A stretch of 62,770 nt of DNA from Planctomycetaceae bacterium (GTDB taxonomy: Bacteria > Planctomycetota > Planctomycetia > Planctomycetales > Planctomycetaceae): positions 1 through 62,770 of the forward strand of contig JAGQPY010000002.1 in assembly GCA_020426485.1 (NCBI GenBank). Direction: 5' to 3'. This document shows positions 43,611 through 62,417 of the stretch, in pieces. The position numbers and the translations under genes were made by a program. Under the pieces are notes generated by a model. The model was not told the origin of the DNA and made no database searches. It saw only the letters and a program-made list of their open reading frames with translations. Position 1 is the stretch's first letter; each line of letters starts with the position of its first letter.

Positions 43611-43884
43611 GCGACGGCGGTGTCATTCATTCTTGATCTGTGCCGGACAGTTAACGGATTACTGCTGCTGTGGGTCGGAAGATGTGGAGAGTGTGTGTCT
43701 CCTCGAAATCCGAATGTGAGCACCGCTCCGTCAGTTCCTGTCAGGTGTTGCTTCAGTCTCGTTCAAGTATCCGTTTGCTCTCTTGCCACGTCGTACTCAG
43801 TTTTGTCGTTTAAAGGCGGATTCGATTGGTGAGCGAGGTCCGGTGCGAGCTGCATGCTCACAGACGGAATCAACCTGTCCCCTT

Positions 43885-45237: not shown

Positions 45238-45413
45238 AGCTGCAAACCCTGTACTGACAGGTGAATTCTTCTGTTCCGGGAAAATGAAGCCCTTCGCATC
45301 GATTATCGAGTCACGAAGCAGCGACGATTAAGTTCTCATACAACAACGGTTTACTCTGCTTGAGGCATCTATTGCCGAAAGTCGTTAGACTGCCCTTCGC
45401 CCGCAGAAACAGA

Positions 45414-46607
45414 CTATTTCATCAGGCAGATTTTCCAGATGTAGGGATTCGACGGATCGCAGATACCCTGTTCTGTGGTCAGGATTGTCGGAGTGCTGAT
45501 CGCGGACGGCTGAATCGTGAGGGTCCATCCACCGTCACTGACTGCATCGACTGCAAGAATTCTTCCGGCCACCAAGCGCGTGAGCCGGATGCTTCCATCA
45601 TCGTTCGAACCTGTTTCGCTCAGGTCATACAGCGGAAAGATTCTTCTGCTTCCCACAAGCTGTTTCAGGCCTGTGGCGATGACCATTGATTCTTCAGCAC
45701 CCATTTCTGCCGCCCAGGCATTCCGCGGAAACGCGGTTTTCTGTTCACCGATGGACTGCTGGTCGGCAACCGTGAAGCCGGATGTGATCTGTCGGCCGAT
45801 CGCATTTCGATTGATCGCTGGTGCTGCAAGACTGACGAGAAGCCCGGTGCCGGCACCGGGAACTGCACCTCCCACGCGGACTTCGAATTCGGGAATTCGG
45901 TCAGGGATGCTGTCCGGCGTCTGTGCGACGTTGTTCCAGGTCCAGAGGTCACTGCCATGCCCCTGTTCAACTTCGAAAGACCAGCAACCGCGAACCGGCT
46001 GAGTGGCATGATCAGGAAGGGCGACCGGGAGCCAGGGCACCGGATTCGTCACCGTTGGCAGAAACCCGCAGACATCATTTCGCAGGCTGACCTGTGCTTT
46101 GGAGGCAACCGCCACACGTCGGGATGCTCCGGATCCGACCATCAACAGATCTCCGCTTCCAGGCTCCGCGGCGCTGGAACTGCTGACTTCGACACTGGTT
46201 GGAAGATATCCTGACCACCGGGCCTGTGTGTCAACATGACCAAAGGAAACCCGGACGTCATTCTCGGCTATTGCCGGCACTGATGTGCGCTTGGCATACT
46301 CTTTCGCGACCTGCATCGCGGCTCCGGCAGCGGCGAGTTTCTGGCCTTCGACTTCAAATCCGGTCCGGTGATAACGAAGCAAATCATCGGAAATCATATT
46401 GCGAGCGGCAGCCAGGGCAGCAGACTGCGCACAGCGTTGAGATTCTGTTCTGAGCCAGCTGACGTAACCGATGTTGGCCACCAGAGCAACACACAGCAGA
46501 CATGCTGCCATCATCAGAACCGTCCACAGACTCAGGGAGCCTCGACGGCTGTTTGAAGGAGATTTTCTCCTGTCAGTGAATCTTCGTTTCACGTCCGAAG
46601 ACTCCAA
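45414..46607 (-). CDS. TadG-like membrane-anchored protein (no VWA/MIDAS seen)
   Basis: The N-terminus RRGSLSLWTVLMMAACLLCVALVANIGYV resembles the TadE/G-like anchor. 397 aa. It occupies the position where a secretin would be expected. Start uncertain (TTG 46607 or GTG 46592). Confidence 0.72.
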   Translation of the reverse strand: MESSDVKRRFTDRRKSPSNSRRGSLSLWTVLMMAACLLCVALVANIGYVSWLRTESQRCAQSAALAAARNMISDDLLRYHRTGFEVEGQKLAAAGAAMQVAKEYAKRTSVPAIAENDVRVSFGHVDTQARWSGYLPTSVEVSSSSAAEPGSGDLLMVGSGASRRVAVASKAQVSLRNDVCGFLPTVTNPVPWLPVALPDHATQPVRGCWSFEVEQGHGSDLWTWNNVAQTPDSIPDRIPEFEVRVGGAVPGAGTGLLVSLAAPAINRNAIGRQITSGFTVADQQSIGEQKTAFPRNAWAAEMGAEESMVIATGLKQLVGSRRIFPLYDLSETGSNDDGSIRLTRLVAGRILAVDAVSDGGWTLTIQPSAISTPTILTTEQGICDPSNPYIWKICLMK

Positions 46608-46759
46608 TCGTTACGTTAAGGCATGTTGCCGGTTGAAGGGCCGTCAGAAAAACAGGCTGGTCTCCACATGAGACGCAGCCTGAAGAAGCAGAAGGCAATG
46701 TTTGCTTGTGCTGAAGGAACCGCCAAATGTCGTCTCGGTCCTCGCTCAACAAAATCGAA

Positions 46760-47755
46760 TTAAAGGGATCCTGATCCGGTTCCCTGAAGCTGAGTGAGAT
46801 CCTGACTGCGTTGACTGTCATCAATGAGAGTCGCATCCCAGCCTGCTGAACCGACGTCAGACCCCTGCAGAGGCGAACCGCCGTTGTAGGTTCCATCGAC
46901 CGTGGCTCCCTGTCGCAGAGCACGCATTCGGCTCATCGGGCGACCATTTTCGTCATAGTAAACCGCACTGCGGATACCGTTTCGAAACTGTTCTGTGACA
47001 AAGGGTTCGTCCGCTTCTTCTTCCTCAAGACCCAGAATTTCACTGAGCATCAATCGGTCACTGCGAGATGCATGAACGCTCACACCGCCATTCCCCGGGC
47101 CGGAAGGATTGTAAGTGAGGCTGATTTCTCCTTTGTCTTTCGCCAGCACGAGAATCTTCTGCTGATCGGGGGACACTTCCAAGGTCACTTCGTTGCGGTC
47201 AATCCCGCCTCCGACTGTTGTGCTGCTTCCGTTGACGGCATAAACCCGAACTCCGTCGAACAACTGCAGAACCATGGCATCGCGCGAGCGATTGCCACTG
47301 CGAACCCCCGACAACGACATCATGACGTCGACATAGTTGCCCGGACGAATCAGTCCGCTGACGATTCCTGTACTGTCTCCGACGGAAACGCTGACCAGAC
47401 GGTTGCCCGGAGCAATATTGATCTCAGGTCCCTGTCCGACGGGATACAGGTCTGACAGCCGAATCGGAGTAGCCGCGGAAATGCGATTTCGAGCGACTCG
47501 TCCGGCCAGGGCATTGACCGAAAGTACGGTGTCCGGGGTCAGTTTGTCGGGGTCGGCCGGACCTTCACCGAGGTAATTGGACTGGATGCGAATTCCCGGC
47601 TCAATGTCGGACAGAGCCATCGGAACATTTCGGCGAGCGACTTCAGGGGCCTTTGGAGGCTGTGCCGCGAACAGCTTCTTGAAAATGAACCCCACTGAAA
47701 GGGCTGCAACGATCAGAAAAGCGGCGACAGCCAGCATCCACGGAGTAAGTTTCAC
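46760..47755 (-). CDS. cpaB: CpaB/RcpC-like Flp pilus assembly protein
   Basis: N-terminal TM WMLAVAAFLIVAALSVGFIF. SAF-like VPMALSDIEPGIRIQSNYL. A beta-clip region. GTG 47755 or ATG 47737 start. Confidence 0.82.
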   Translation of the reverse strand: MKLTPWMLAVAAFLIVAALSVGFIFKKLFAAQPPKAPEVARRNVPMALSDIEPGIRIQSNYLGEGPADPDKLTPDTVLSVNALAGRVARNRISAATPIRLSDLYPVGQGPEINIAPGNRLVSVSVGDSTGIVSGLIRPGNYVDVMMSLSGVRSGNRSRDAMVLQLFDGVRVYAVNGSSTTVGGGIDRNEVTLEVSPDQQKILVLAKDKGEISLTYNPSGPGNGGVSVHASRSDRLMLSEILGLEEEEADEPFVTEQFRNGIRSAVYYDENGRPMSRMRALRQGATVDGTYNGGSPLQGSDVGSAGWDATLIDDSQRSQDLTQLQGTGSGSL

Positions 47756-47932
47756 GTTTGTGTCTCCTGCGACTTAATCACTGTTGTTTCAATCCGCCGG
47801 GGCGAATTAACCGTTGGCCCGGGAGGTCTTCTGTCGTCCGTGAAAAATCCGCTTCAGTTGTTGAGAAGTGGCACTCCTGAGACCAGTAACGACCACCAGT
47901 CTCTGAAAAATCAAGTTATTCCCCGAACGGAC

Positions 47933-48376
47933 TCATAACTGCGTCTGACCGGCAGAGACGGTATCATGCTCACGAACCATCAATGCGTCTGCAGCCATCA
48001 CACGATTTCGTACGGAGAAACCCGTCATCCACAGCAGGTCGGGCGCAGCGTTCTGCATCGGAACATTCACTCGAATGTTGATCCGATCTCCGGCTTTCCC
48101 GGGGTCAGTGACTTCTACGGTTGCTCCACTCCCAAGTCTGGAGCCCAGTGACTGAATCACATCTTTGCGAACCGTTTCCGCGGGTGCATTTGTCAGGCAC
48201 AGCTGTCGAGCCCCGGCGTGTGCCGCATTGGCAATCCGGGTCTGCGCTGCGGTCAGCATTGTGAATTCGACGATGGCGAACAGCAGCAGCAGGAAAAGAG
48301 GAAGGACCAGGATGAGTTCCATTGAGAGAATAGCGCCACGTCGTCGGTGGACTGTTATTCGCGGAATGGACTTCAT
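47933..48376 (-). CDS. TadE-like pseudopilin
   Basis: HRRRGAILSMELILVLPLFLLLLFAIVEFTML is the TadE-family N-terminus. ATG at 48376; the longest ORF starts at TTG 48394. Confidence 0.85.
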   Translation of the reverse strand: MKSIPRITVHRRRGAILSMELILVLPLFLLLLFAIVEFTMLTAAQTRIANAAHAGARQLCLTNAPAETVRKDVIQSLGSRLGSGATVEVTDPGKAGDRINIRVNVPMQNAAPDLLWMTGFSVRNRVMAADALMVREHDTVSAGQTQL

Positions 48377-48554
48377 AATGACTCCCTGAATCAACGCAGA
48401 TCAGCGACCTGTAGTTCTGCTGTGAGTCCGTTCGGCGATTTCTGCTGCCTTCGGTGAGCAATTCACGCCTGCCGGGCGACAAACGGCCGAACTGTCGTCG
48501 GGGTGTGCCGGTTGGTGCGATGGCAACAAATATCGCTGACGCTTCAGCGGCCCG

Positions 48555-49106
48555 TTACCACTGAGCCGGGAACAGGAGCAGAATGCTCCATGTCGCGAGA
48601 GCAACCGGCATCGCGAAAGCCATGACTCGTCGTTTTGATCGCTGTTCCAGAGTTTCGGTAACAGCTCGTCGGCCCTTGCCTGCAACGGTTTCCCTCTTTG
48701 AATACCGAGCTCGTGTTTTTCGCCATCCGTTCTTCAGGATTCCGCCAATCACGACCGCCAATGTTCCCATGATCACAAAAATCAGACTTGCCAGAATGAC
48801 CTTCAGAGTCAGCCCGGCACCCAGCCAAACACTTAACGCGCCCATGAGTTTCACGTCGCCGCCACCCGCACTGCCAATCATCCACAGCACGAAGAAGATT
48901 CCGAAGCCGACAAGGAATCCGTAGAGTCCGTGGAGCAGACCGTCCGTCTGAAAGAAGATCCCCTGATAGATCCAGCCAGTGGCCCACATCGGGACGGTGA
49001 CTTTGTTAAAGATTTTCCGCCAGCGCAGGTCGGTGTAGGTGGTGATCGCCGTGAAGACAGCGATTGCGATGAGGAAGACTGTTTTGTGGATTTGCGGGTC
49101 GGACAT
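48555..49106 (-). CDS. A24-family prepilin peptidase (CpaA/TadV-like)
   Basis: TYTDLRWRKI and GGGDVKLMGALSVWLG supply the two catalytic Asp motifs. Polytopic. ATG at 49106; the longer ORF to 49340 adds a non-membrane leader that looks spurious. Confidence 0.85.
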   Translation of the reverse strand: MSDPQIHKTVFLIAIAVFTAITTYTDLRWRKIFNKVTVPMWATGWIYQGIFFQTDGLLHGLYGFLVGFGIFFVLWMIGSAGGGDVKLMGALSVWLGAGLTLKVILASLIFVIMGTLAVVIGGILKNGWRKTRARYSKRETVAGKGRRAVTETLEQRSKRRVMAFAMPVALATWSILLLFPAQW

Positions 49107-49372: not shown

Positions 49373-50164
49373 ATGCCCGTTACTCCACCGATCGACCCAT
49401 GCGAACTGTTGACCACTGCAGAAGAGGCTGCCCGAGCAGGGGGACAGGTTCTGCAGGATTGGCGAGGCCGGTTTTCTGTTCGGGAGAAGAGTCGAGCAAA
49501 TCTGGTGACGGAAGCAGACCATGCTTCGCAGGAATTGATTCACCGATTGATCTCCGGCAGATATCCGGATCACGGGTTTCTTGGTGAGGAAGGGCTGAAT
49601 CTGCCCGCAAAAGGCTCTCCCTGGCAGTGGATCATTGATCCATTGGATGGCACTTCCAACTATGTGCATGGGTTTCCATATTACGCTGTTTCGATTGCCG
49701 TTCGGTACGACTCGGAACTGATCGCCGGTGTGATCTTCGACCCGACTCGAAACGAACTGTTTGCAGCGACGGCTGGCGGGGGAGCGTATCTGAACGGGCG
49801 GCAGATTTCCGCGAGTGGAGAGCGTGAGCCTTCGGGGGCGATGGTGATGGCCAGTCTGCCGGTGGGTGGCCGCCCCGAAGATCCGGCGGTTCAGCGATTT
49901 CTGAAGGCATTTTCGCATCTTCAGGCCGTGCAGCGCAGTGGTTCTGCTGCCTTGAATCTGGCGTGCGTGGCATCAGGCCGTATCGACGGGTTCTGGTCAA
50001 CCAGCCTGCACCCGTGGGATGTTGCCGCCGGGGTTCTGATTGTTCAGGAAGCCGGTGGAACCGTTACAACTCTGAAGGGTCATGCCATTGATATTTCCGT
50101 TCCGGATATACTGGCGGCCAGCAGTCCCGAACTCAGTGCTGCTCTGATCGGCATATTGAGATGA
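49373..50164 (+). CDS. suhB: Inositol monophosphatase family protein
   Basis: FLGEEG, WIIDPLDGTSNYVHG and HPWDVAAGVLIV motifs. The ATG at 49373 gives a normal-length (263 aa) protein. Confidence 0.9.
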   Translation: MPVTPPIDPCELLTTAEEAARAGGQVLQDWRGRFSVREKSRANLVTEADHASQELIHRLISGRYPDHGFLGEEGLNLPAKGSPWQWIIDPLDGTSNYVHGFPYYAVSIAVRYDSELIAGVIFDPTRNELFAATAGGGAYLNGRQISASGEREPSGAMVMASLPVGGRPEDPAVQRFLKAFSHLQAVQRSGSAALNLACVASGRIDGFWSTSLHPWDVAAGVLIVQEAGGTVTTLKGHAIDISVPDILAASSPELSAALIGILR

Positions 50165-50175
50165 GCAATTCCGTC

Positions 50176-50205
50176 CGGATCCACGCTCCACAGATCCGTT
50201 TCGTT
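50176..50205 (+). terminator. Weak terminator-like hairpin after the IMPase gene
   Basis: CGGATC (50176-50181) pairs with GATCCG (50193-50198) around an 11-nt loop, followed by TTTCGTT. Confidence 0.3.
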
Positions 50206-50555
50206 GCGGATTGGACAGTCCGGCGACTCAGGGAAGTCCCATGAATTCCTTCACTTACCCGCATTTACGACGTAGGATTCCTCGTCGGACTATTTGGCCG
50301 TTGTCCGCCCTGCGATTGTTCTGAAGCCGGGCTGTGACATCTGAGCGATCCTGAGAATGCATCAGTTGGCAGATGTTTTTGTTTTTTGCCGGAAACGGTT
50401 TGCCTCCGGATGGACGGTCAGAACAGGACCACTCGGTGGTCGTTGGGCCGATCTTAACGTTGCTGTTTCTGAGCCATGTCAGAAGTTGAAGCGGGTTCAG
50501 TTTAGTTGTTGTTTCGTTTGTTCTTCATTGAAAGCTCAGGCACTGAACGTTTCCG

Positions 50556-53500
50556 ATGCGGCAGCTCGACCCAAAATCAGGACTGCGATTATGCTGCGGG
50601 ATCAGGCTCGTCCTAGTGATCGTGCTGTTGCTGTTCAGCCACGCGGCTCGACTTCATGGTCAGGAGGGTGCCACATCGGCGGCGAACTCAGTTTCTTCAA
50701 TTGAGGTCATTCAGCGGAATGGCGAAACCGGCGAAACGATTCCTGTTCCCGGATTCAGTCCGGAACTTCTGAAGGAAATGCTCGATCGAGCTCAGCTTCA
50801 GGCGCACCCGCCGCTTTACCGAATTGAAGATCTCAAACTGCTGGGGCAGGTGTCTCAGGGGTTGGTTGATCTGAGGGTGCAGTTGCAGATTCAGATTCTC
50901 AGAGACGGGGAAGCAATCGCTGTTCCGCTGGGTTTCGAAGACCTGCAGCTCAGAGATCATGTTCACCGAACGGCTGTTTCCGGTGGCAGTGGCTATCCCA
51001 ACGTGGCAAGACTGCCCGTCAAGGAATGGATCTTCTTCGGCAAGGGCCGTCACGAGCTTGAGTTGACGTTTGTTGGTGTCGTGCGTTCCGCATTGAACGG
51101 AACACAGCGACTGACTCTGGCGGCTCCAAAGTCCGTTGTCAGTCATTTGCAGATCGGCTTTTCAGAACGCGTAACGGGTGTGACCTCGACCCCCGAAAAG
51201 CCGTTTGAGCTGTCTGTGGATGAGGCGGCAGCGACCTCCGCGCTTCAGATGTGGGGGTTGACAGAGTCGATTGAGATTTCATGGCTGACCCGGCCATCGG
51301 AGTCCGAGCAGACGGTCAATCTTCAGGCTTCCGCTGCTGCCGATATGCGATTGGATCTGACAACGGTACCGGCATCGCTTGCAGTCCGGCAGCCGCTCAA
51401 TATTTCCGGTGGCGCATTGAGTGAACTTCGAGTGCGTTTGCCGGCAGGATTTCGACAGGTTTCGATTGATGGTGTTGATGGGAACGGTAACTCGGTTGTC
51501 AAATCGGTATCGGTGACGACCGATGAAACAAACGAGGCGCTGATTACGTTAAACTCCGCCGTCACCGGCGCTTTAATTCTGAATTATGACCTTGGGCTGA
51601 AGGATACGGCTTACCCGCAGGAAATCACGGTTCAGGTGCCGGACGTTGAGAGTGTTTCGAATGAAACGGCGGATCTGGAAATCTACGTTCCTCGCGGTCT
51701 GGAATTTGATCGTCCGCGCGAGCACGCTGTTCGCAGCAAACGAGTGGAAACGTCTCGTGATCTGCGTACGGCTGCTTTGGCCTATCGATTGCTTTCCAGT
51801 GACAGTCGAATCCATCTGAAGGTCAGTGAAAGCGAAGTGTTTTTTGCCGTCTCTCCGCAGATCAGTTTTACAACAGAGCAGGACCAGATCCTCAAACGCG
51901 ATTCTGTGCTGGTCTCTGCTCGTTTTTCCGTCAACGTCATTCGTGGGTCATTGAACGAGCTGACCGTCCGTTGGCCCGGGTACCTCTCCGAAGGCTGGCA
52001 GATTCTTGCGGGTGACACTCGGCTGATTGCCGGGCAGACATCGACGCCGATTTCAGGGTTTGCGTCGCCGACAAATCCTGACGAGTTCACGATGGTTTTT
52101 CCGGAACGACAGTCCGGTCAATTCGAAATTGAGTTGCAGGGATTTCGTGATCTGGAATCGTTTCAGGCCGCAGAAGGACTCACCTACCTTCCGGAGATTG
52201 ATACGCCGACGGCACACTCTGCGATTGTGTCGCTGGTGGAATCGGACGAATACTCCATGTATCTCGTGCCCCTGGATGAGCAGCCATCGTTTCCTGTGCT
52301 TCCCTCCAACCGATGGCCCGAAAGCCTGAAAGCGGTCAAACAGCCACTAACGGCATGGCTGGTCGACGCTCCGGACCGGCCAATGCGGATTCGGATTACT
52401 CCGCAGCGTCCTGAGGTTCGAACCAGGATGCTGGTGGCAGTTTCTGTGGTGAATGAGAGCTTTCATGTTCGGGAAGTTCTGTCCTTTGACGTTCGGCACA
52501 GGGAACTTTCAGAGATCCAGCTTTCGGATATCGGCGCGTCACCGACAGTACGTCTGGAAGATGCCTCGGAGGCTCTGGAGAGAACGACATCCGATGGTGA
52601 GGCGTTAGTGTACAGTCTGCCTTCACCGATGCGTGGAAGCTTCCGTCTGATTGTCGATTACAACTGGTCAGGGCGAATTTCGCTGCAAACCGAAGAAAAG
52701 GCACCGGTCGCTGTGCCGCTCGTGTTGCCACTGGGATTTACGGAGGATATTTCGGAAATCGTTGTGGCGACAAACAGTCCGGAAAAGATTGTTCTGGATG
52801 GCTCGTCCGGCGGAACGCCGGTGTACTCCGAAGAGTACTCCGCTTCTTGGGTTCTGAACGATGTGCCGGAGACGCTGCCGATTCAACTGAGGCAGCCATT
52901 GTCAGCGGAAGAAATCACCGCGCCGCAGTTTGTTGTGGCAACCACCGTTGTGAATCCCCAGACGGTTATGACTCGCGTGACTGCAGTTTATGACAAACTG
53001 CCGGGCTCGGTTCTGTGTCGACTCAGCCGCGAAGCTGTTGCCTTGCGAGCTTCGATGAACGGCCGCGCGGCGAGTTTTGATCAGGTCGATGATGATGATC
53101 CTTCGTCGGTTTTGTTTCAGCTCACTCCGGCCCCCGATATCGTGCTGGATTCCCCCGCGGAAATCACGATCGTGACGCAGCAGATTCGAGATGACAGTGA
53201 GTGGAGGCAATCGATACTGCTGCCGGAGTTGCTGGGTGCCGAGGACTGCAATGTTGTCTGGATCGTTCCCCAGATTGCGGGGTACTCCATATTTCCGGTC
53301 AGCAATGGGGAGTTTAAGTTATCTCTGTCAGATTCGGGTGGGGCGAATCAACTGCATTCCGGTGAAGCACTGGCGCTGGCTCCTGTGATTTCGCCGTTTT
53401 CGCCGTCAGTACGAGAACGAATTCTGGAGATTGTTGATGATTCCGTTTCCGGAACGGACGCTTGTGAGGTGGTTCTTGGCACGATGATGGGAACCCGCCA

Positions 53501-53891
53501 GAAACTGTACACCTTGTCTCGCAGTCTGCTGTTGCTGATTGTGTCTGCCTGCAGTCTGGTGATTTACTTTCTTGTGCAGCGACTTGGGTTAGCGAACCTA
53601 TGTGCCATTTTCGTCGTTCTGGGGGCTGCTGCTGTCGGGATCACAGGATTCATACCGACCGCCGTCACGACATCGCTGATTCGATATCTGCCTCTCTTCG
53701 CGCTGGCAGCGATTGCGGCTGTTTTTCAGAGATATCTGAGTGGCTCACAGTCGCCGTTTCTCATGACTCCGTCTTCAGACGAGGGCAGTACGATTTTCGT
53801 CGTTGAGCCCGTGCAGCAGGCATTGAAAACGGCAGGGAACGGCACCTCCGCCCTTTCCGCGTCTCGTCCGTCAGGACTCAGTCCGACCTGA
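50556..53891 (+). CDS. Giant envelope protein A: signal peptide, ~950-aa ectodomain and a C-terminal cluster of three TM helices; no recognisable domain
   Basis: 1111-aa ORF. N-terminus LRLCCGIRLVLVIVLLLFSHAARLHGQ. TM cluster LLLLIVSACSLVIYFLV / LCAIFVVLGAAAVGITGFI / YLPLFALAAIAAVF at roughly nt 53520-53735. Confidence 0.85.
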   Translation: MRQLDPKSGLRLCCGIRLVLVIVLLLFSHAARLHGQEGATSAANSVSSIEVIQRNGETGETIPVPGFSPELLKEMLDRAQLQAHPPLYRIEDLKLLGQVSQGLVDLRVQLQIQILRDGEAIAVPLGFEDLQLRDHVHRTAVSGGSGYPNVARLPVKEWIFFGKGRHELELTFVGVVRSALNGTQRLTLAAPKSVVSHLQIGFSERVTGVTSTPEKPFELSVDEAAATSALQMWGLTESIEISWLTRPSESEQTVNLQASAAADMRLDLTTVPASLAVRQPLNISGGALSELRVRLPAGFRQVSIDGVDGNGNSVVKSVSVTTDETNEALITLNSAVTGALILNYDLGLKDTAYPQEITVQVPDVESVSNETADLEIYVPRGLEFDRPREHAVRSKRVETSRDLRTAALAYRLLSSDSRIHLKVSESEVFFAVSPQISFTTEQDQILKRDSVLVSARFSVNVIRGSLNELTVRWPGYLSEGWQILAGDTRLIAGQTSTPISGFASPTNPDEFTMVFPERQSGQFEIELQGFRDLESFQAAEGLTYLPEIDTPTAHSAIVSLVESDEYSMYLVPLDEQPSFPVLPSNRWPESLKAVKQPLTAWLVDAPDRPMRIRITPQRPEVRTRMLVAVSVVNESFHVREVLSFDVRHRELSEIQLSDIGASPTVRLEDASEALERTTSDGEALVYSLPSPMRGSFRLIVDYNWSGRISLQTEEKAPVAVPLVLPLGFTEDISEIVVATNSPEKIVLDGSSGGTPVYSEEYSASWVLNDVPETLPIQLRQPLSAEEITAPQFVVATTVVNPQTVMTRVTAVYDKLPGSVLCRLSREAVALRASMNGRAASFDQVDDDDPSSVLFQLTPAPDIVLDSPAEITIVTQQIRDDSEWRQSILLPELLGAEDCNVVWIVPQIAGYSIFPVSNGEFKLSLSDSGGANQLHSGEALALAPVISPFSPSVRERILEIVDDSVSGTDACEVVLGTMMGTRQKLYTLSRSLLLLIVSACSLVIYFLVQRLGLANLCAIFVVLGAAAVGITGFIPTAVTTSLIRYLPLFALAAIAAVFQRYLSGSQSPFLMTPSSDEGSTIFVVEPVQQALKTAGNGTSALSASRPSGLSPT

Positions 53892-53902
53892 GGAGCGGGA
53901 TC

Positions 53903-56900
53903 ATGCGTCTGCGATTGCTGATATCGATCCTGATCCTGAACTGCGTGAATTGGTGCAGTGCTCAGACGCCGCCGGCCCCTGCGTCCGGCGAGTCGTGGTA
54001 TCAGGGCGGATTTCTTTTTCGCAGGGTCTCTCCTGCGGATCTGGCGGCGCAGTTAAAGGGAGGCACGTACGTGCCGGTACGTCCCGACCAGTTTGATGAA
54101 CTGCTGAAGTCCCACAGTCGTGATCGATCTCGTTCGACAGACTGGAATGCGGTCCGAAAAGCGGAGTACCGCGCGACGCTGGTGAATGAATCTCTGGAAA
54201 GCGGAACGGTCGCGCTTGAACTCTACGGTCGCACGGATCAAAGCCCGCCGGAAAGGAGTATTCACCTGGGAGCTCTCAATCTGAGTGAACTTCGACTTTT
54301 TTCTCAGGGGGTCGAGGTTCCCGTCGCAGTCGATTCACAGGAACGGTCCGTGGTTTTGACCGAACGCCCTGCTTCTGCACTCACAGGGAGCTGGACGGCC
54401 ACTGGGACGATGAACGGGGAAGACCTGATTTTCCAGTTGCGACTTCCTCGCGCTTCGTTGTGTTCGTTTGAACTGGAAACCAGCCTGAACACTCAGGTGA
54501 CAAGTCCAAACGCTCTCGTGATTCCTTCTTCGTCGGATGACACGAAGTCGACCTGGCTGCTGATGCCGCGATCACCATCGCTCCTGACGCTTGTTTGTTC
54601 CCGTAACCTGAAAACTCGTGAATCGGAACTGACCGGTGTGAGTATTCAGGGGGACTATCGATTCGGTGAGTCACAGACGGAGATGAGCTGGTCGGTAAAT
54701 GTGCCGCGTACTCTGACGGACTGCGACCTGCAGTTTCTGATTCAACCCGGTTGTCAGATCGCGAAGGTGGACAGTACACCATTTCCTGGTCCTCAATGGA
54801 CCACTGCCGAGGTTGACGGCAATGTTGTTCTGAATATCAAAATGCCGCCACTGACCACGGCGGCGACGTTGGGAATTCTTGGTCGTAGTCAATTTCAGTT
54901 ATCCAAACTCTTTTCTTTGCCTGTCATTCGACCGATGACATATCGGTTGTCGGGGGGAACGACTGACCTTGACCTTCCCCTGCGTTTTTCCACATGCCGT
55001 TTGAATGTTGCCCCCGAACTTGCAATCAGTCATCTGGACCTGACCGATTTCCAGGAACGGGATGTGACCTATTCTTCTGATGGCGGGCAGGCGCTGGAAC
55101 TGGTTCAGAATTCTGCGGCCGCTGGCGCCGAGATCGGCCTGGTCGGAGCTCGGCCACTGGTTGAAGATTCTGTGGCAGTCGAGCTTGGAACCGGTAACGA
55201 CCGGAATATGGCGACAGCAAACGTCTTCGTTTCCGTCGCGACCGGCGCGCTGAGTGAGGTGAGCTGGAACATTCCTCGATCGTGGCGCGTGACCGATGTT
55301 TTTGAGGCGGATTCCCGGTTGCCACTGCTTTTCCAGATCGAAAGCCCTTCGGATGCATCGGGAGAAACACGCCTCACTGCTTTCCTGAGAAATCCACTGA
55401 CGACTCGTGCCGGTCAGCTGCTGACCATTGAAATGCAGTCCACGGAGAACCGAATCCGAGCAGGAATTCGACCTGCTTTGATTAACAGTCAGCAATATCG
55501 CCGTAAACAGAATCTGCTGATTGGTCCCGGCGAAGAACTGAGAACTTTTGGTGCTGACGACGGGATGTTCCTCAACGACGAGACCATCGAAACCATCACA
55601 ATGGAACTTGGCAGACTGGGAGTTAAGCCTGATCAGACGGTATCCATCGTATCGGTGGATGAACTGCAGGAATCCAGTGAAGAACGAAGTCCGGTTTCGT
55701 TGCTGTCCGGAAGCATTGACTATTCCGCCCTGATGAATCCGGAGAACTTTCTGCGAGAAAGTTTTCGGCTCAGGCTGCGTTCACAGGACGCCATTCCGGA
55801 ACGAGTCCCTCTGGCTGCATTGCCGGGACTCGAACTGACGATTTCAGATGTTTCCGTGACTCAGCCCACTCCATCGCTGAGGCCGGTGGCCAATGCCGGA
55901 TCGACGGAAAACTGGGTGATTGAGGTGCCGCCCGGGCTTTCACCCGGAAACCTGCTGGACATAACCTTAACCGCAACGCGACCGTTTCGCGATGGCCTGC
56001 CGATGGCATGGCTGTCCGTTCCTTCCGCAAGCACCATGACAGGAACACTTCGTCCACTGGACAATACGTCCGGAATTCAACTGCTGAGGACGGGTGAGCC
56101 GCTGGAAGTTGTGTCAGACGTGTTGCCATACCCGGACAGGAGTGCATTCGGCGGGTTTGTCTATCGAAGTAATGCCGCAACGGATTCTCGCCAGGACATT
56201 TCCGGAAACTCAGTGGTTTTGCTGGACGTCGCTTCGGGAGAAATGACCGGGACAGTCTTCAGTCATCTGCTGGTTCATTCATCAGATGCAAAGCCCTTCC
56301 TTGGACTTCGCCTGGACGGGGCTTCCGATTTGCGAGTCTTCGTCGATGGCAAAGCGACATATGCACACCAGTTGGACGATACATTGCGACTGGCACTGCC
56401 GGAAGGCCCCGGTATCTCGACGGTCGACCTCTTTTACCGAATTACACTTCACGAACAGGACACATCACTGGCGTACACTTCAATTGGTTTTCCCTTCAGT
56501 GACTCGGTCTACCATGTTCACGAAATTCTGCCACCGGTCGGATTTCTACTGGAGCCAGAGGTGGCACATGCCATGGTTGCCACCGGCAGAGACAGCGGTC
56601 AGCGTTTGGTCGCCGATTATTTCACTCGTCAGGCTTCTGACGCCGTCAGAGATTTTTCCCGCAGTTTTCGGTCTCGCTGGAATCAACGGCGTTTGCAGGA
56701 CGTTTCAGCAATCTGGCTGAAGATGGAAACGGGACAGTCCGTCGCCAGCCTGACAGTCATCAATACTCATGTTCGAACGTTTGTTGAACTGGCAGTGTTT
56801 GTGATTGTTCTGGTGCTGTGGCTGTACGTAGCCGGAGATCGCCGGTCGACCGCCGTTCCGGCCGTTGGACTCATGATCGGGGCACTATTGCTGATGTTAT

Positions 56901-59900
56901 CCGGAAGGACAGAATTCATTGGGCTCAGGGGGGCAGTCCTTGCGACGGTAACGTTCCTTGTGTCAAGGTTCGTTGTGCATTCAGTGCTGTCAGCCTGCCG
57001 AGCCGTGCAAAGAAGTCCGGGACCCTCGCTTGTCGCGCCGGCGACGGTTCTGCTTGTGCTGACGCTGCTCTCATTGAACGCTGCAGCGCAGACGTCCGGG
57101 AATTCGGCGATTCTTGTGCCGCACACATCCAACGGAGATTTTCCGCTGATTTATGTTCCACAGTCTGTTTACTCTCGCCTTGAAACAGAGGACAGGAGTG
57201 GTGGGGCGGGATGTCATGTGCTGGAAGTGAAGGCGAACGTTCATCTTTCGACTCGAGATCAGGCCGTGATCTCGATCGATTGTCTGCTGGCGGTTGATCC
57301 TGCAGCCGCGCCGGCATTCCGCATTCCTTTGTCGGGGGCAACGCTGTCGGAATGCTTTACTGATGGTGTCAGGACATGGCCTTCGCCGGATGGTCCGAAT
57401 GAAGTTCGGCTGGATGTTTCGTCCGCGCCGGTTATCGCCGTTAAGCCTTTGGTCGGGGGTGATGGCTCTTCCGCACCTGCTGAAACATCGGCTGCCGCTG
57501 CAGGACCGAATACGTTCGGCCAGTGGAACATTAAAACGGTTCGATACGTTGTTCGTGTTTCTGCCACAGAGCTGTCTGCGTTTGAAGATCGCATCAGCGT
57601 CACTCTTCCACCTGCAGCCACGACAGAAGTTCGCGTCAAAGATGATTCCCACGAGATCAGCCGAGTCGTTCTGGTTAATCGAGGTCGGACTTTTACCGAG
57701 CACACAACGGACGGGCAATGTCGCTTTCCACCGATCTACAATGCACGTGACATTGATTTGTACCTCCGCTCCGGCAATCGTCCTGCCGATGTTTCAGGTG
57801 AGGAAGATCTGAAGTCGCTGCTGGTAGACGTTGACGCAACTCCGACCCAGCTGAAAGTTGCTGCTTTGTATCGCCTGCCGCCGGCAGAAAGTGGTCTGCA
57901 GTCAGTCTCCGTCCGCCTTCCCCGCCGACGAAGAATTACTGCCGTTGAGACAACGACGGGAAATTCGGTCCCGTGGTCCGTCAGCGGCGATACTTTGCAG
58001 GTGCGGCCATCAGCAGGAGCGGATGGCTTTCGAAGGTTTGTGGTTCGAATGTTGCTGGAATACCCCGTCGAACTTCGGCATTCACTTCCGGTGGGTACCT
58101 TTGCGAATGTCGACGGAGAAAGAATGTCCAATGTGATCCTTGCTGTCAGTACGTCCGAGCAGTTTGTTGTTGGTGAGCTTTCATCCGCGGGAGTCAGTCT
58201 GTCAGAGCCCGATCCACAGCTTCTGAATCGACTGATCAGCGATCGTGGTAGTCCCGGAGCGTCCGAAACGTACGCTTTCGTTCCGCCGGAATCAGGTACG
58301 GTTGATGTTCTGATCGCACAGCGGGATACTTCGCTGGAAGTGACTCAGGTTCAGAATGTCACGGTGACTGACGACGAAATTCAGTGGAACTGTCGCTGTT
58401 CCATGGATGTTCGAGGGCAACCTGTTCTGCGACAGCAGTTTGAAGTTTCCCCGGAGGTCGATCTGGAAAGCGTCTCCGTTTCGACCAACAATTCGCCGTT
58501 GCTGCAGACCTGGACACGCAGTGCTGATCTGGTGATCGTCGCCCTGCGCGAGCCCACACGAGGCGTGTTGGAATTCAGTTTCCAGGGTGTGGCGAAACGC
58601 ACGCCACAGGCCAACCAGCCCCTTCCGACAATACGACCGGCGGGACACGTGCAGTTGCTGGAGTCCAAACTGGTTCTGCGAAGTGAAGCCGAATCGGATG
58701 TGTTTCTGCACGATCTCGGCAGTGGTACGCCTGATGTTGCCATTGATATCAGGGAGCAGCCACTGAGCGATGCTTCCATTCATCTGGACCTGACCGATGA
58801 CCTGCATCCACCCATTCTTGGTGCTCGGCTGGCAGGGCAGCTTCGCGTTGCCGGACTGCTGATCCTTCACGACGAAGGTGGTCCACTGCGGATTTCACAG
58901 TTGTGGCATTTGCAGAAAACGATGGCCGCATCTGAAGTTCGACTTGGATTTGCTGACGGCTCTCGACCCGCAATGTACCTGTATCTTGGCGAAGAGAGCG
59001 AAACGCTGCCAGCCAATGATGACGAGCTTCTGATTGCTGAATTTGCGGATTCAGCAGTGCTTGTTGTCGAAGACCAGGTGGTAACGGCGGGCAGCGGCGT
59101 CGTTGAATTCTCAATCCCCGTGTTTGCCGATGATCCTGAATCTCATGTCGTCGCATGTCTGGATTTTCGTGAAGGCCGACATATTCAGCGAACTCCCGTA
59201 ACAGTACCCGAATGGGCGCGGACCGTATTTGAAGAGCAATACCCCGATTTGGCAGCGCGCGCTTCATCTGCCGGATCCATTGAGCCCGGAACTGATGCCA
59301 GTGAAGGACGGGTTCGACTGGAGATTGAACCGCCCTTGAACGCTGACACGGAGGCACTGCCTGCGGGAGGTGCTCTGACGGGCATCGCCGTTCATCAGAT
59401 TGTTCAGCCTTCCGATGGCTCGCCGATGATCGAATCCTCTTTCGTCCTGGTTTCCGAACGTCGAGGCCGTGATGTCAGTTTTGTCATCTCGCCCGCCTTG
59501 TGCGTTCTGGATGTGCAGATTGACGGTCTGTCAGTTCCGTTTCGAATTGATGGTTCGCAGTTCCAGCTTTCACTCACAGACAATCTGCACCATATTCGCA
59601 TCAACAGCACTCTTTCCCTCGAAGGTAATCACTACGGATGGAGTTCTCCGGAGTTTCTGCCACTGACGGCTGGCATGAACGGGCCGGTCTTCGTGGCTGT
59701 CGAGTCGGACCGCAATGCTGCCGTTCGTCTGACTGATCGTGAGACTGTGGCAACGGAGAACGAATGGAAGGAACGGCTGACGGGAGCTTTGAGAGACCAT
59801 GTCACCGCCGTGGATCGTGCACTGTGGAGTGTGCTCGCGGATGAGCTGTCGATCAAAGGATCGAGTGCTTTGTCCGGGACCACGGTTTCCGAACAGTTGC

Positions 59901-60355
59901 GCGCGACGGCCACGGCAGTCCGGCGAACGCTGGAACTGAAGTGGACTCAGGATACTGTGTCCCGGAATGAACCATCGAGAACCATGCCTGTCATCGCAGA
60001 ATTCACGAATCTGTGGCACGGAGGCGATGATGAGCCGATCACAGCATTTTCCGTTCATCAGACTGCCCCACAGTGTCAGGTGCGATTTCGGGATCGCTTC
60101 GCAGCAGTCTGGAAACTCTCTGCACTCATTGGGATGCTGTTTCTGGTCAGCTTTCGTCGTCGTCGTGCACAGAATCCAGTGGTCGGAACGTCTGCACCCG
60201 GTCGCGACGAACCGATCGCTGCCTTCAGCAATTCGGGATCGATGCCGTCGTCGGCCATCAGATCGGCGTCTCAGGTCGGCTCTGAACCGCAGGCCAGTCC
60301 AGGCTCAGGATCAGGTGTCGCAACCGAGACCGGGAACGCTGACCTGACAGATTGA
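53903..60355 (+). CDS. Giant envelope protein B: two ectodomain modules separated by an internal TM cluster, plus a C-terminal TM anchor; no recognisable domain
   Basis: 2150-aa ORF, 11 nt after gene A, with GGAG upstream. Signal peptide MRLRLLISILILNCVNWCSAQ. Internal TMs at roughly aa 961-1063. C-terminal TM LSALIGMLFLVSF followed by RRRR. Confidence 0.85.
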   Translation: MRLRLLISILILNCVNWCSAQTPPAPASGESWYQGGFLFRRVSPADLAAQLKGGTYVPVRPDQFDELLKSHSRDRSRSTDWNAVRKAEYRATLVNESLESGTVALELYGRTDQSPPERSIHLGALNLSELRLFSQGVEVPVAVDSQERSVVLTERPASALTGSWTATGTMNGEDLIFQLRLPRASLCSFELETSLNTQVTSPNALVIPSSSDDTKSTWLLMPRSPSLLTLVCSRNLKTRESELTGVSIQGDYRFGESQTEMSWSVNVPRTLTDCDLQFLIQPGCQIAKVDSTPFPGPQWTTAEVDGNVVLNIKMPPLTTAATLGILGRSQFQLSKLFSLPVIRPMTYRLSGGTTDLDLPLRFSTCRLNVAPELAISHLDLTDFQERDVTYSSDGGQALELVQNSAAAGAEIGLVGARPLVEDSVAVELGTGNDRNMATANVFVSVATGALSEVSWNIPRSWRVTDVFEADSRLPLLFQIESPSDASGETRLTAFLRNPLTTRAGQLLTIEMQSTENRIRAGIRPALINSQQYRRKQNLLIGPGEELRTFGADDGMFLNDETIETITMELGRLGVKPDQTVSIVSVDELQESSEERSPVSLLSGSIDYSALMNPENFLRESFRLRLRSQDAIPERVPLAALPGLELTISDVSVTQPTPSLRPVANAGSTENWVIEVPPGLSPGNLLDITLTATRPFRDGLPMAWLSVPSASTMTGTLRPLDNTSGIQLLRTGEPLEVVSDVLPYPDRSAFGGFVYRSNAATDSRQDISGNSVVLLDVASGEMTGTVFSHLLVHSSDAKPFLGLRLDGASDLRVFVDGKATYAHQLDDTLRLALPEGPGISTVDLFYRITLHEQDTSLAYTSIGFPFSDSVYHVHEILPPVGFLLEPEVAHAMVATGRDSGQRLVADYFTRQASDAVRDFSRSFRSRWNQRRLQDVSAIWLKMETGQSVASLTVINTHVRTFVELAVFVIVLVLWLYVAGDRRSTAVPAVGLMIGALLLMLSGRTEFIGLRGAVLATVTFLVSRFVVHSVLSACRAVQRSPGPSLVAPATVLLVLTLLSLNAAAQTSGNSAILVPHTSNGDFPLIYVPQSVYSRLETEDRSGGAGCHVLEVKANVHLSTRDQAVISIDCLLAVDPAAAPAFRIPLSGATLSECFTDGVRTWPSPDGPNEVRLDVSSAPVIAVKPLVGGDGSSAPAETSAAAAGPNTFGQWNIKTVRYVVRVSATELSAFEDRISVTLPPAATTEVRVKDDSHEISRVVLVNRGRTFTEHTTDGQCRFPPIYNARDIDLYLRSGNRPADVSGEEDLKSLLVDVDATPTQLKVAALYRLPPAESGLQSVSVRLPRRRRITAVETTTGNSVPWSVSGDTLQVRPSAGADGFRRFVVRMLLEYPVELRHSLPVGTFANVDGERMSNVILAVSTSEQFVVGELSSAGVSLSEPDPQLLNRLISDRGSPGASETYAFVPPESGTVDVLIAQRDTSLEVTQVQNVTVTDDEIQWNCRCSMDVRGQPVLRQQFEVSPEVDLESVSVSTNNSPLLQTWTRSADLVIVALREPTRGVLEFSFQGVAKRTPQANQPLPTIRPAGHVQLLESKLVLRSEAESDVFLHDLGSGTPDVAIDIREQPLSDASIHLDLTDDLHPPILGARLAGQLRVAGLLILHDEGGPLRISQLWHLQKTMAASEVRLGFADGSRPAMYLYLGEESETLPANDDELLIAEFADSAVLVVEDQVVTAGSGVVEFSIPVFADDPESHVVACLDFREGRHIQRTPVTVPEWARTVFEEQYPDLAARASSAGSIEPGTDASEGRVRLEIEPPLNADTEALPAGGALTGIAVHQIVQPSDGSPMIESSFVLVSERRGRDVSFVISPALCVLDVQIDGLSVPFRIDGSQFQLSLTDNLHHIRINSTLSLEGNHYGWSSPEFLPLTAGMNGPVFVAVESDRNAAVRLTDRETVATENEWKERLTGALRDHVTAVDRALWSVLADELSIKGSSALSGTTVSEQLRATATAVRRTLELKWTQDTVSRNEPSRTMPVIAEFTNLWHGGDDEPITAFSVHQTAPQCQVRFRDRFAAVWKLSALIGMLFLVSFRRRRAQNPVVGTSAPGRDEPIAAFSNSGSMPSSAIRSASQVGSEPQASPGSGSGVATETGNADLTD

Positions 60356-60386: not shown

Positions 60387-62417
60387 CTATCGCACTTTTT
60401 CCTGCAATGCCCAGGCGGCGATGTGTTTCTGCAGGTCTTCGTCCCGAGTAATTTCAATAACACGGACACCGCCTGTCCGCAGCGCTGAAGTCGCGGCTGA
60501 CCGAAGTGCTCGCTGCTGTCGCGATTCCGTGCCGGAACTTACTGTCAGCAGAGACAGTCGTTTCGAGATCAGGGTTTCGGGCAGAGTGCCATGGAATACC
60601 GGCCATGTATCCAGAAACACGGCTCGGTTAACTGACTGTTGACGTGAGTTGGTCAGTAAGCTGAAGCACAGCTCAGATTGCCTGGGGCTCGACACAAAGA
60701 TGATCCGGTCCATGTCAATCGGTTGCCTCTGGCTGACCGCCGTCAGACATTCCTGAATCAACGTCATGTCTTCCGCCGTGAGGTCTGTGCGTTGCAGATT
60801 CTCAGGGCAGACCAGCATCAGATTGTGAGCCTGACAGGTTCGTTCCCAGTTGCGATAAACAACTTCGAACGGTCGATCGTTTTCGGAGAGCATGACCAGC
60901 ACTCCGAGCCGGGAAGATTGCTTTTCCTCGGGGCGGAAAATCCGCAGCGTCCCCTGCTCTGCGATCTGTTGTTCTTCCTGGCCCCACTTTGCATCCGGAT
61001 CAGATCCCGTGACTTGACGCACGAAGTCTTCGTTGAAACTCAAAACAGCGTTGGGTCTGGCCACCGCCTGAATCTCCGTTGTTGTGGTATCCGGAGAATC
61101 CGGTTTCGGTTTCCATTCAACGCTCACTGACGTCCCCGCAAAGGTGCGAGCCCGTTGACGAAATTCAGACCTTCCGGTGACGGGGGCCTCATTGATTTTC
61201 AAGATGACGCATTGATCCGTAAGACCCGCTTTAAACGCGGGCGAATCCGGAAGAACATTGACCACAACCGTGTCTTCCCTGCCGGAGTCCGCGATGGATC
61301 CTTCATCCGGCAGCAAGCCCAGTTGTCCCGGAACGGGAAGGTTGAGTTTGTCTGTCAGCGTGACGCTGTAGTCAGTTTCTTCCTCGTTACGAAGCGCGGT
61401 GATGTTCAGGGTTGTACCAGCGCTGGAACTTCGAATGATCGATTCAAAGATTCCAAATCGTGAGATCTGCTGTCCATTCACTCGCAGAATCTGATCGCCT
61501 GCCTTCAATCCGACCTTGTCGGCAGGAGAATCGGGAATGACTGCCGCAATTCGAATCTCAGGCTCAAGTGGGTTTCGTGTTGCGAACGAAGCGCCCAGCA
61601 CTCCCCGCAGCATGTCTGTGCCGTCAGTCAGTTTCTCAACGGCGATCAGCAGATCACGCGCCGGAATGGCGAATCCGATTCCCGAGTCATACCACTCCAC
61701 GCCGGCCGCAATCGAATCGCCTCGGTCCGTGGGAGACAGTGGGACCAGAAGTCCGGAAACACGACCGTCAACGGTCACCAGCGGGCCACCATAGTTGACG
61801 GGTGAAATCTTCGCATCTGTCTGGATGGCCAGCCCGTGTACGCGACCGACAGCACTGATGATGCCCACGGATATGGACGGTTCATTTCCGGGAAACAGAC
61901 GACCCATCGCGATTGCGTAGGCACCAGGTTCGGGCCACTGCTCTTCTATGAATGCAGGTGTTTGGAAGTCAGCGCCTTCGCACTTCAGCAGTATCAGGTT
62001 TCGAATCTGGTCTCGCGCGACGATCTCCGCGCTATGGCGATTTCCCTGAGCGTCCTCGACAAAGATCGCGGCGGCCTGACCTCGAACCGAAAAACTGCTT
62101 GTAACAATCAAGCCATCGCCGGGGACAGCAAGTCCGGTTGAGGTCTGAGAGGACACGACCGCCTGACTGGTGTCACCGCGCGTGATGGTCCGAATTCGAA
62201 CAACCGACGGTGCGACCTGAGCTGCGGCGGATCGGACGACAGCGTCCAGCTGTTCATTGGCGAACGTGGTCGAATACGTCAGCAATAGAACGATGGTACA
62301 GATTTTTGCAGATCGTCGAGGATACGGGTACGCACTCTCGGACATATCAGTTCGTGGATGTTGATCGTGATCCGGAATCCTGACGACTGAGTCGTCGTGG
62401 GTAACTTCAATTGACAT
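60387..62417 (-). CDS. Catalytically dead HtrA-like trypsin-fold protein with two PDZ domains and a C-terminal degenerate alpha/beta-hydrolase-like domain
   Basis: The sequence aligns along the whole HtrA core (APSVVRI.., GIGFAIP). The triad positions read F109 (IVTSSFSV), N140 (IRNLILLK) and Y209 (ISPVNYGGPLV). PDZ-like VGLKAGDQILRVNG and AGLTDQCVILKINE. An alternative ATG at 62345 gives a signal-anchor start. Confidence 0.88.
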   Translation of the reverse strand: MSIEVTHDDSVVRIPDHDQHPRTDMSESAYPYPRRSAKICTIVLLLTYSTTFANEQLDAVVRSAAAQVAPSVVRIRTITRGDTSQAVVSSQTSTGLAVPGDGLIVTSSFSVRGQAAAIFVEDAQGNRHSAEIVARDQIRNLILLKCEGADFQTPAFIEEQWPEPGAYAIAMGRLFPGNEPSISVGIISAVGRVHGLAIQTDAKISPVNYGGPLVTVDGRVSGLLVPLSPTDRGDSIAAGVEWYDSGIGFAIPARDLLIAVEKLTDGTDMLRGVLGASFATRNPLEPEIRIAAVIPDSPADKVGLKAGDQILRVNGQQISRFGIFESIIRSSSAGTTLNITALRNEEETDYSVTLTDKLNLPVPGQLGLLPDEGSIADSGREDTVVVNVLPDSPAFKAGLTDQCVILKINEAPVTGRSEFRQRARTFAGTSVSVEWKPKPDSPDTTTTEIQAVARPNAVLSFNEDFVRQVTGSDPDAKWGQEEQQIAEQGTLRIFRPEEKQSSRLGVLVMLSENDRPFEVVYRNWERTCQAHNLMLVCPENLQRTDLTAEDMTLIQECLTAVSQRQPIDMDRIIFVSSPRQSELCFSLLTNSRQQSVNRAVFLDTWPVFHGTLPETLISKRLSLLTVSSGTESRQQRALRSAATSALRTGGVRVIEITRDEDLQKHIAAWALQEKVR

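Follow-up and report, generated by a model that had tools for sequence, protein, structure and literature searches.

Membrane-anchored chains of β-sandwich domains are a familiar kind of architecture. Ribophorin I and Ost1, non-catalytic scaffold subunits of the oligosaccharyltransferase (OST), have a luminal fold of two β-sandwiches followed by a C-terminal transmembrane (TM) helix, and the legs (thigh and calf) of the integrin α chains as well as PIG-T of the GPI transamidase are β-sandwich chains that end in a TM helix. Among bacterial systems, GldM/PorM of the type IX secretion system (T9SS) is a strut of stacked Ig-like domains of ~500 amino acids (aa) that spans the periplasm from an N-terminal anchor in the cytoplasmic membrane, and BatD, which is common in Planctomycetes, combines a signal peptide with a β-rich ectodomain and a C-terminal TM segment. 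The envelope of planctomycetes is unusual: its periplasm is enlarged, it carries crateriform structures, and polymers are taken up with the help of fibres. Almost no structural proteins of this envelope are known. Here we compare these systems with two adjacent genes, A and B, located on a 62,770-nucleotide (nt) stretch of DNA from a Planctomycetaceae bacterium (assembly GCA_020426485.1, contig JAGQPY010000002.1; hereafter the window), which encode three paralogous modules, one in A and two, B1 and B2, in B. Each of these arms has a Sec signal peptide (a putative one in B2), a β-sandwich chain of ~900 aa and helical anchors, three in A, three in B1 and one in B2. That A and B together constitute a conserved, lineage-restricted, non-enzymatic envelope scaffold, whose three paralogous arms are anchored in the cytoplasmic membrane and reach into the periplasm, has in our estimate about an even chance of being correct. 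New here are an architecture of three paralogues, a conserved signal-peptide-like element within B and the operon that A and B form with an upstream gene of the IMPase family, and no paper describing the A/B family was found in the literature searched.

Modules and fold of A and B

The two genes and their modules occupy the following positions in the window:

50556–53891, + strand: gene A, 1111 aa, ATG start; module 1 (ORF listing)
50556–50663, + strand: Sec-type signal peptide of A, ~aa 1–36 (hydropathy peak at aa 7–36)
50817–53330, + strand: ectodomain of A, ~aa 88–925, all-β, with 5–6 β-sandwich domains (AF2, pLDDT mostly 70–90)
53517–53744, + strand: three-helix TM anchor of A, aa 988–1063 (hydropathy cluster at 984–1058, AF2)
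53745–53888, + strand: cytoplasmic tail of A with the conserved motif DGSTIFxIE (conserved T1079 and F1081)
53903–60355, + strand: gene B, 2150 aa, ATG start; modules 2 and 3 (ORF listing)
53903–56773, + strand: B1, comprising a signal peptide (aa 1–20) and an ectodomain (~aa 21–957), paralogue of A (hhalign against A)
56774–56992, + strand: TM cluster of B1, three helices, aa 958–1030, hydropathy from ~952 (hydropathy, homologues)
57089–60097, + strand: ectodomain of B2, aa 1063–2065, β-sandwiches followed by long helices before the anchor (AF2, Foldseek, hhalign)
60098–60352, + strand: single C-terminal TM of B (aa 2066–2084), FRRRR stop-transfer and Ser/Pro/Gly-rich cytoplasmic tail (hydropathy)

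The two open reading frames (ORFs) reported in the preliminary description of this DNA, with their coordinates and their spacing of 11 nt, are reproduced exactly by the ORF listing, and the pair spans 9.8 kb, or 15.6% of the window. The length of the ORFs, together with the existence of homologues down to ~18% identity, excludes that either is a chance ORF. B qualifies as a 'giant gene' (>5 kb), and giant genes of >5 kb are a known feature of planctomycetes (PMC12673574). The ectodomains of both proteins are enriched in Leu, Ser, Val and Thr and are poor in Lys and Cys.

Hydrophobic segments were located with a Kyte-Doolittle scan, and secondary structure was taken from AlphaFold2 (AF2) models. 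The N-terminal hydrophobic segment of A is followed by an 'AQ' consensus that is kept in the A homologues, and the same hydrophobic layout is observed in 44 A and 39 B homologues, establishing that the plan proposed earlier, namely signal peptide, β ectodomain of ~900–1000 aa and TM anchor, is real and conserved. We infer that the ectodomains of A, B1 and B2 are periplasmic, with their anchors in the cytoplasmic membrane. The invariant columns among 42 diverse A sequences are all Trp, Gln or Pro. Conservation is comparatively high in the TM and juxtamembrane regions, with LLLQPAxLGL in the wider family as an example, and the conservation of these segments and of the DGSTIFxIE motif in the tail of A suggests specific intramembrane and cytoplasmic contacts.

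The three modules are too diverged for direct sequence comparison, since BLASTP detects no significant similarity between modules, or of each protein with itself, and profiles are needed. Using hhalign with profiles built from 44 A and 39 B sequences, where B1 corresponds to residues 1–1040 of B, A aligns with B1 with 97.1% probability (E 5.5e-11), colinear over 932 columns, and B1 aligns with B2 with 92.6% probability (E 4.4e-7); A against B2 reaches only 37%, yet is colinear. When signal peptides and TM segments are removed, the probability is 80.8% for A and B1 and still 93% for B1 and B2, and the juxtamembrane helix together with TM1 of A matches that of B1 with 65.5%, versus 3.4% for the reversed profile. 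Column-reversed controls are at or below 3.8% throughout, with E at or above 0.011. Because the ectodomain-only matches exceed the reversed controls, the ectodomains share a repeated domain type. A and B1 are likely to be colinear over their whole length, although part of this signal comes from the terminal hydrophobic segments. In addition, the hidden Markov model (HMM) of A matches the distantly related B homologue of locus P0014 in its second module, and an A-like protein scores against the HMM of B2. The three modules are thus related, as the preliminary description had surmised, with A–B1 and B1–B2 matches far above the reversed controls and with the same top Foldseek match for A and B2.

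The AF2 model of A has a pLDDT of 69.8, and that of B2, obtained with a 5-sequence alignment, has a pLDDT of 46, with residues 60–540 moderately confident and the rest poor. For both models, the top Foldseek matches are 6s7o_E, 6ezn_A, 6c26_1, 7oci_A and 8agb_E, of which we take the first to be RPN1 of human OST and the other four to be yeast Ost1, an assignment that draws on chain lengths and is not stated by the tool. The best matches have E values of 1.6e-8 (A) and 7.9e-9 (B2), a probability of 1.0 and a target TM-score of up to 0.39, and the alignments to the OST chains span ~420–460 columns. These are followed by integrin α legs, ITIH1, PIG-T and the N-domains of M1 aminopeptidases. Judging from the models, the ectodomains are chains of Ost1/ribophorin-I-like β-sandwiches, with ~5–6 per arm in A, which is a resemblance in fold and not membership of a family. 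Indeed, the likeness to ribophorin I/Ost1 lies in the succession of tandem non-cytoplasmic β-sandwiches and an α-helical anchor, and the two-β-sandwich luminal fold with C-terminal TM is recovered by Foldseek at the fold level only. By contrast, A and B have 5–6 domains per arm instead of 2, polytopic anchors and a bacterial host; no match to PF04597 is found in A, B or 30 relatives, and no OST chain is returned by the PDB profile search at E≤10. Members of the STT3/PglB family are likewise absent from the Pfam lists of the called genes in 15 loci (L001–L006, L055–L061, P0014), with the genes of the window scanned in part.

The comparison with the other β-sandwich systems is similar in outcome. 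Integrin α legs and PIG-T are matched by Foldseek with E values of 1e-7 to 1e-4, but with TM-scores of ~0.1, and A and B have neither the β-propeller/FG-GAP head nor a corresponding Pfam match. BatD differs in that its Pfam family, PF13584, has no match in A, B or the 30 members scanned, and in that the A/B operon is devoid of VWA, TPR and MoxR genes, the MoxR/BatA cluster of the window being 33 kb away. GldM/PorM, compared by description, is alike in concept, but its anchor is N-terminal whereas those of A and B are C-terminal, and no similarity in sequence or operon is evident. DUF4139/MuiA-like identity was rejected, as PF13598 has no match at E≤1 in 32 sequences, and α-2-macroglobulin was discarded in the absence of a C.EQ motif and of a Pfam match, with an α-2-macroglobulin structure ranking 47th in the Foldseek search with A at a probability of 0.13. 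Adhesins of the VWA, RTX and cadherin types are rejected for lack of their motifs and profiles. Lipid conduits of the AsmA-like/TamB and MCE (LetB/PqiB) types are also rejected, since they have no Pfam match and since the 50 best Foldseek matches of each model include none of the conduit structures looked for (TamB, VPS13, ATG2, MCE, LetB).

Sequence searches are uniformly negative. A and B have no Pfam or NCBIfam match at E≤1, and 10 A and 20 B relatives searched singly against Pfam give nothing consistent, with scattered single matches at E≥0.007. PADLOC and PHROGs return only noise-level matches for A and B, and the PDB-sequence profile search returns none for A at E≤10 and only chance matches to Nup214 and EMC6 for B (E>0.5). 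Neither protein contains CxEQ, RTX, cadherin or LPXTG motifs, in agreement with the absence of thioester and adhesin signatures recorded previously. No characterised family is therefore matched by sequence, BatD, DUF4139 and α-2-macroglobulin included. The statement that the proteins have 'no recognisable domains' holds at the level of sequence, where Pfam and NCBIfam are empty, but not at the level of fold, where tandem Ost1/ribophorin-I-like β-sandwiches can be recognised. Within the window, the HMMs of A and B match no other ORF, Rfam gives no match over the whole length, and a scan for promoters and terminators around the A–B operon was uninformative.

The junction between B1 and B2

The boundary between the two modules of B is marked by the following features:

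56993–57088, + strand: internal signal-peptide-like element of B, aa 1031–1062 (39-homologue alignment)
~Ala1062↓Gln1063: putative cut site, after which the N-terminus of B2 would read QTSGNSAILVPH...

The internal element of B comprises an Arg-rich n-region and a short h-region, followed by LNAAA↓Q, with the hydrophobic segment extending over aa 1038–1062. In the alignment of 39 homologues, the third TM helix is succeeded by a stretch rich in Lys and Arg, whose net charge over 15 residues has a median of +4, and then by a hydrophobic core; the polar-free run of this core has a median length of 14 aa, as compared to 20 aa for the C-terminal TM of B. Small residues precede Q, D or W at the junction, for example in ...LNAAA↓QT, ...SSA↓QQ, ...AVA↓QE and ...ANA↓WQ, and a variable low-complexity linker leads from there to the B2 ectodomain, the start of which is conserved. 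In its n/h/c geometry, the element resembles a cleavable Sec signal peptide in 39/39 B homologues, and it is built like the signal peptides at the N-termini of A and B (...CSA↓QT in B).

The presence of signal-peptide geometry inside B points to a fusion, possibly a polyprotein cut by signal peptidase. B is probably the product of a fusion between an A-like gene (B1) and a downstream gene (B2) that carried its own signal peptide. Since the geometry of the cleavage site is conserved, signal peptidase I would still cut B, which is thus possibly a membrane polyprotein that is processed at the internal site. A split arrangement was considered and rejected, as separate B1 and B2 genes are not seen among 150 representatives. 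At locus L051 (10232–16784), the B homologue is divided into two ORFs at ~residue 1340, away from the B1/B2 junction, and this split is probably a frameshift or an assembly error.

A membrane polyprotein of this kind has a counterpart in the cytochrome b-c1 polyprotein FbcH of Bradyrhizobium, whose internal signal peptide, reportedly described by Thony-Meyer et al. in 1989–1991, is said to be cleaved after membrane insertion. The likeness consists in a membrane polyprotein with an internal signal that gives two subunits in a 1:1 ratio, cleavage being a prediction in the case of B, and the difference is that the proteins themselves are unrelated. A literature search for the FbcH precedent returned nothing directly relevant.

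The IMPase-A-B operon and its possible roles

Upstream of A, the window contains a gene and an operon that recur beside A and B elsewhere:

49373–50164, + strand: IMPase-family (Inositol_P) gene, 263 aa (PF00459, E 2.2e-64)
41192–49106, − strand: Tad/Flp pilus operon, seven ORFs, divergent from IMPase-A-B (Pfam)

The A/B family is large. A word-indexed homologue search recovers 9 A and 2 B relatives, or 4 of B when a 20-sequence B alignment is used, and an exhaustive HMMER search with the A profile recovers 1033 clusters at 50% identity with E≤1e-3, of which 179 have E≤1e-30. A scan of species-representative genomes yields 48 loci, all from metagenome-assembled genomes (MAGs), mostly labelled Planctomycetaceae, Fuerstiella or Planctomycetota. 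Full-length relatives of A measure 1137 ± 37 aa (n=120) at ~18–25% identity to A of the window, and those of B measure 2158 ± 47 aa (n=39). All recovered names are 'hypothetical protein', with the exception of one 189-aa fragment labelled as an MnhG antiporter subunit. Every credibly named carrier is a MAG of Planctomycetaceae or Planctomycetota. Six MAGs labelled Kuenenia (L024, L031, L032, L036, L038, L052) and two labelled Chitinophaga (L039, L044) have the same Tad/IMPase/A/B or IMPase/A/B locus as MAGs of Planctomycetaceae, and these labels are probably wrong or the bins contaminated. A further side case is the P0014 locus (JGI 3300047160), where a solitary, distant B-like protein of 2415 aa has neither A nor IMPase upstream, and where a myo-inositol-1-phosphate synthase (MIPS) gene is located ~5.5 kb downstream, beside UbiA and PAP2 genes; this synthase may be a second connection to inositol, or a coincidence.

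The ORFs called in all fetched loci were searched with the window proteins and the family HMMs. A colinear B directly follows A in every locus sampled, including those of the five most distant lineages (L055, L056, L057, L060 and L061). In nine of the ten loci with called genes, the gap between A and B ranges from −4 (a 4-nt overlap) to +77 nt, and in L060 it is 285 nt. With A preceding B at every sampled locus, and with 1033 clusters, conservation of the pair extends far beyond the source genome. The IMPase gene, which the preliminary description had missed as a partner together with the Tad operon that lies divergently in many loci, immediately precedes A, in the same orientation, at all loci with sufficient room except L060. 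Its start is probably Met88 of the ORF that begins at 49112, as inferred from homologue lengths of 258–269 aa. The active-site motifs DPLDGT and WDVAAG are intact in the window copy, which has the defining features of the family, and no NCBIfam equivalog cut-off is reached. The IMPase-A spacer (50165–50555) measures 391 nt in the window and 368 nt in L056, whereas the remaining loci with called genes have 49–163 nt. In the window it contains a weak terminator-like hairpin (50441–50459) and a small overlapping ORF (50357–50704). The IMPase-A-B unit is retained in at least five flanking contexts, among them the Tad operon, PCMT, HSP90/SOD and GFO_IDH/amine oxidase.

The Tad operon encodes a prepilin peptidase (PepA24), with a probable start at 49106, as well as TadE, RcpC, a TadG-like protein, the TadA/CpaF ATPase, TadB and a long TadC of 463 aa. 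The seven ORFs of the cluster have no Pfam match to the secretin (RcpA/CpaC), TadZ/CpaE or Flp pilin families, and A and B show no homology to Tad families in Pfam or NCBIfam. The operon is followed by a 399-aa Zn-ribbon ORF (39868–41067). A divergent Tad operon is present upstream in ~60% of the loci that have enough upstream sequence. As the Tad-positive loci are distributed over several deep branches, namely L061 (18% A identity), L042, the L018 group and the group of the window, the arrangement looks ancestral and would have been lost at least five times. Literature searches on planctomycete Tad pili, crateriform subtomogram work and DUF4139 found nothing directly relevant.

In the envelope scaffold that we propose, signal peptidase I would cut B into B1 and B2 in a fixed 1:1 ratio, and tight translational coupling between A and B would keep A in step with them. 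A, B1 and B2 would then assemble through their conserved TM and juxtamembrane segments, such that the arms project ~20 nm or more into the periplasm, as estimated from the number of domains. The assembly would serve as a strut, spacer or docking platform, in the manner of Ost1, PIG-T and the integrin legs, and would not itself be catalytic, and the cytoplasmic IMPase-family enzyme would belong to the same functional unit. A structural or docking role is suggested by the restriction of invariant positions to Trp, Gln and Pro, with no conserved catalytic motif, by the constancy of length to within ~3% despite 18% identity, and by the nature of the best structural analogues, which are scaffolds and legs.

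Several observations weigh against the scaffold. The colinear score of A and B1 leans partly on the signal-peptide and TM ends, and the alignment of the ectodomains only is shifted by ~160 residues, which corresponds to one domain. Inter-domain confidence in the models is low (pTM 0.39 and 0.27), the C-terminal half of B2 is essentially unmodelled, and the TM-scores of the Foldseek matches are low, the β-sandwich similarity being generic and functionally little informative. Moreover, the physical assembly of A, B1 and B2 is a step that we infer, and cleavage at the internal site is predicted from sequence geometry only. Lastly, an IMPase-A spacer of 50–390 nt permits separate transcription, and the IMPase is the least understood element of the unit.

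The proximity of the Tad operon raises the question of whether A and B are instead accessories of the Tad (type IVc) pilus, forming a membrane-anchored alignment or conduit structure in the periplasm for an operon that shows no secretin. We consider this unlikely. Although the Tad operon divergently adjoins IMPase-A-B in the window and in ~60% of loci, L061 and L042 included, and although no secretin or TadZ is matched by Pfam among the ORFs of the cluster, a secretin could lie elsewhere in the genome, and a divergent arrangement is less telling than a common operon would be. Tad adjacency is also lost while IMPase-A-B is intact in L004/L005, L013/L015, the L023 group, L056, L057 and L060, and we know of no Tad system with A/B-like components. 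A related and still more doubtful proposal, which we would rank as very improbable, is that a structure peculiar to the planctomycete envelope, such as the crateriform/pilus 'press-stud', has A, B1 and B2 as its core, which would be anchored in the cytoplasmic membrane and span the periplasm. At crateriform structures, where pili-like fibres emerge, the press-stud connects the cytoplasmic with the outer membrane, and its molecular components were called unknown in 2017 (PMC5394234) and were still described as such in a 2025 review (PMC12673574). If A and B belonged to it, the ancestral linkage to a Tad operon whose ORFs show no secretin would reflect a shared machine; the adjacency to Tad keeps this proposal alive, and the repeated loss of that adjacency is what makes its probability so small.

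The structural matches and the IMPase could alternatively indicate a scaffold that holds substrates in a membrane pathway for building or remodelling envelope glycans or lipids, in which the IMPase supplies or recycles a phosphorylated compound, for instance inositol phosphate or PAP. Such a role would have parallels in Ost1 of the oligosaccharyltransferase, the top structural match, and in PIG-T of the GPI transamidase, which is also among the matches, and it would fit an IMPase that is almost universally adjacent and has intact motifs; BacA directly downstream in L006 and L056 and the inositol-1-phosphate synthase gene 5.5 kb from the solitary B-like protein would also fit. However, none of the sampled loci encodes an STT3/PglB-like, GT-C or transamidase partner, BacA and MIPS are neighbours at just 1–2 loci each, and the generic nature of the β-sandwich similarity applies here as well, so that we regard such a pathway as decidedly unlikely. 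It is just as improbable, in our view, that A and B are merely neighbours by vertical inheritance, for example adhesins or fillers of the enlarged periplasm, which are uncoupled from each other, from the IMPase and from Tad. Some of the synteny could indeed be inheritance, since the credibly named carriers are all MAGs of Planctomycetaceae/Planctomycetota, and the phylum is rich in giant surface genes (PMC12673574). Against this, the adjacency of A and B, with overlapping or nearly overlapping stop and start, persists at ~18% identity while the flanks change, the modules are paralogous, and α-helical TM anchors speak against surface adhesins in a diderm cell.

What the comparison defines is an unannotated family whose clusters at 50% identity number more than 1000, in which the three-arm architecture is fixed and the IMPase partner near-constant, and in which B, to judge from its sequence, is probably a bacterial membrane polyprotein that carries a signal peptide internally. 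About half of the genes of this phylum are 'hypothetical', and conserved hypotheticals are very common in it; A and B provide testable candidates for envelope architecture. Should they be generic scaffolds, the gain is mainly one of annotation, with two new domain families and one conserved operon.

Other genes in the window

Downstream of B, the window contains a convergent gene on which the preliminary description had remarked:

60387–62417, − strand: HtrA-like ORF, 676 aa, convergent and 31 nt beyond B, with Trypsin_2 and two PDZ domains

Alignment with DegQ reveals that all three residues of the catalytic triad are replaced (His to Phe, Asp to Asn and Ser to Tyr), and with Phe, Asn and Tyr in these positions the HtrA-like protein is catalytically dead, as the preliminary description had noted. 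Its C-terminal extension of ~215 aa is not matched by Pfam. Of the proposed neighbourhood of A, B and dead protease, the A–B part is conserved, but the protease part is not: the dead HtrA-like gene is found behind B in just the window, L012 and L013, and L006 has a fragment of it there. The dead HtrA-like protein was therefore rejected as a partner of A and B, since unrelated genes lie downstream of B at other loci. In two unrelated loci, BacA (undecaprenyl-diphosphatase) is encoded convergently and directly downstream of B (6302–7252 in L006 and 19610–20404 in L056).

The window contains three HtrA-like paralogues, one of them dead. The other two are trypsin-like genes on the − strand, 2088–3209 and 3199–5064, which overlap by 11 nt and both appear catalytically intact; the first also has a PDZ domain, and the second contains ...NYHVT..., ...GDVALIKL... 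and GNSGGPL. Adjoining these active genes is one for a protein of 445 aa whose C-terminal domain is of the glycan-binding NPCBM/NEW2 type (4994–6331, − strand). Further along, the cluster at 6618–19123 includes a MoxR (AAA_3) gene (18056–19123) and a BatA/VWA gene (14750–17137, − strand), downstream of which lie ORFs of 865, 816, 615 and 377 aa that match neither Pfam nor the A/B HMMs. This region is a Bat-like aerotolerance-type cluster with uncharacterised envelope proteins of its own.

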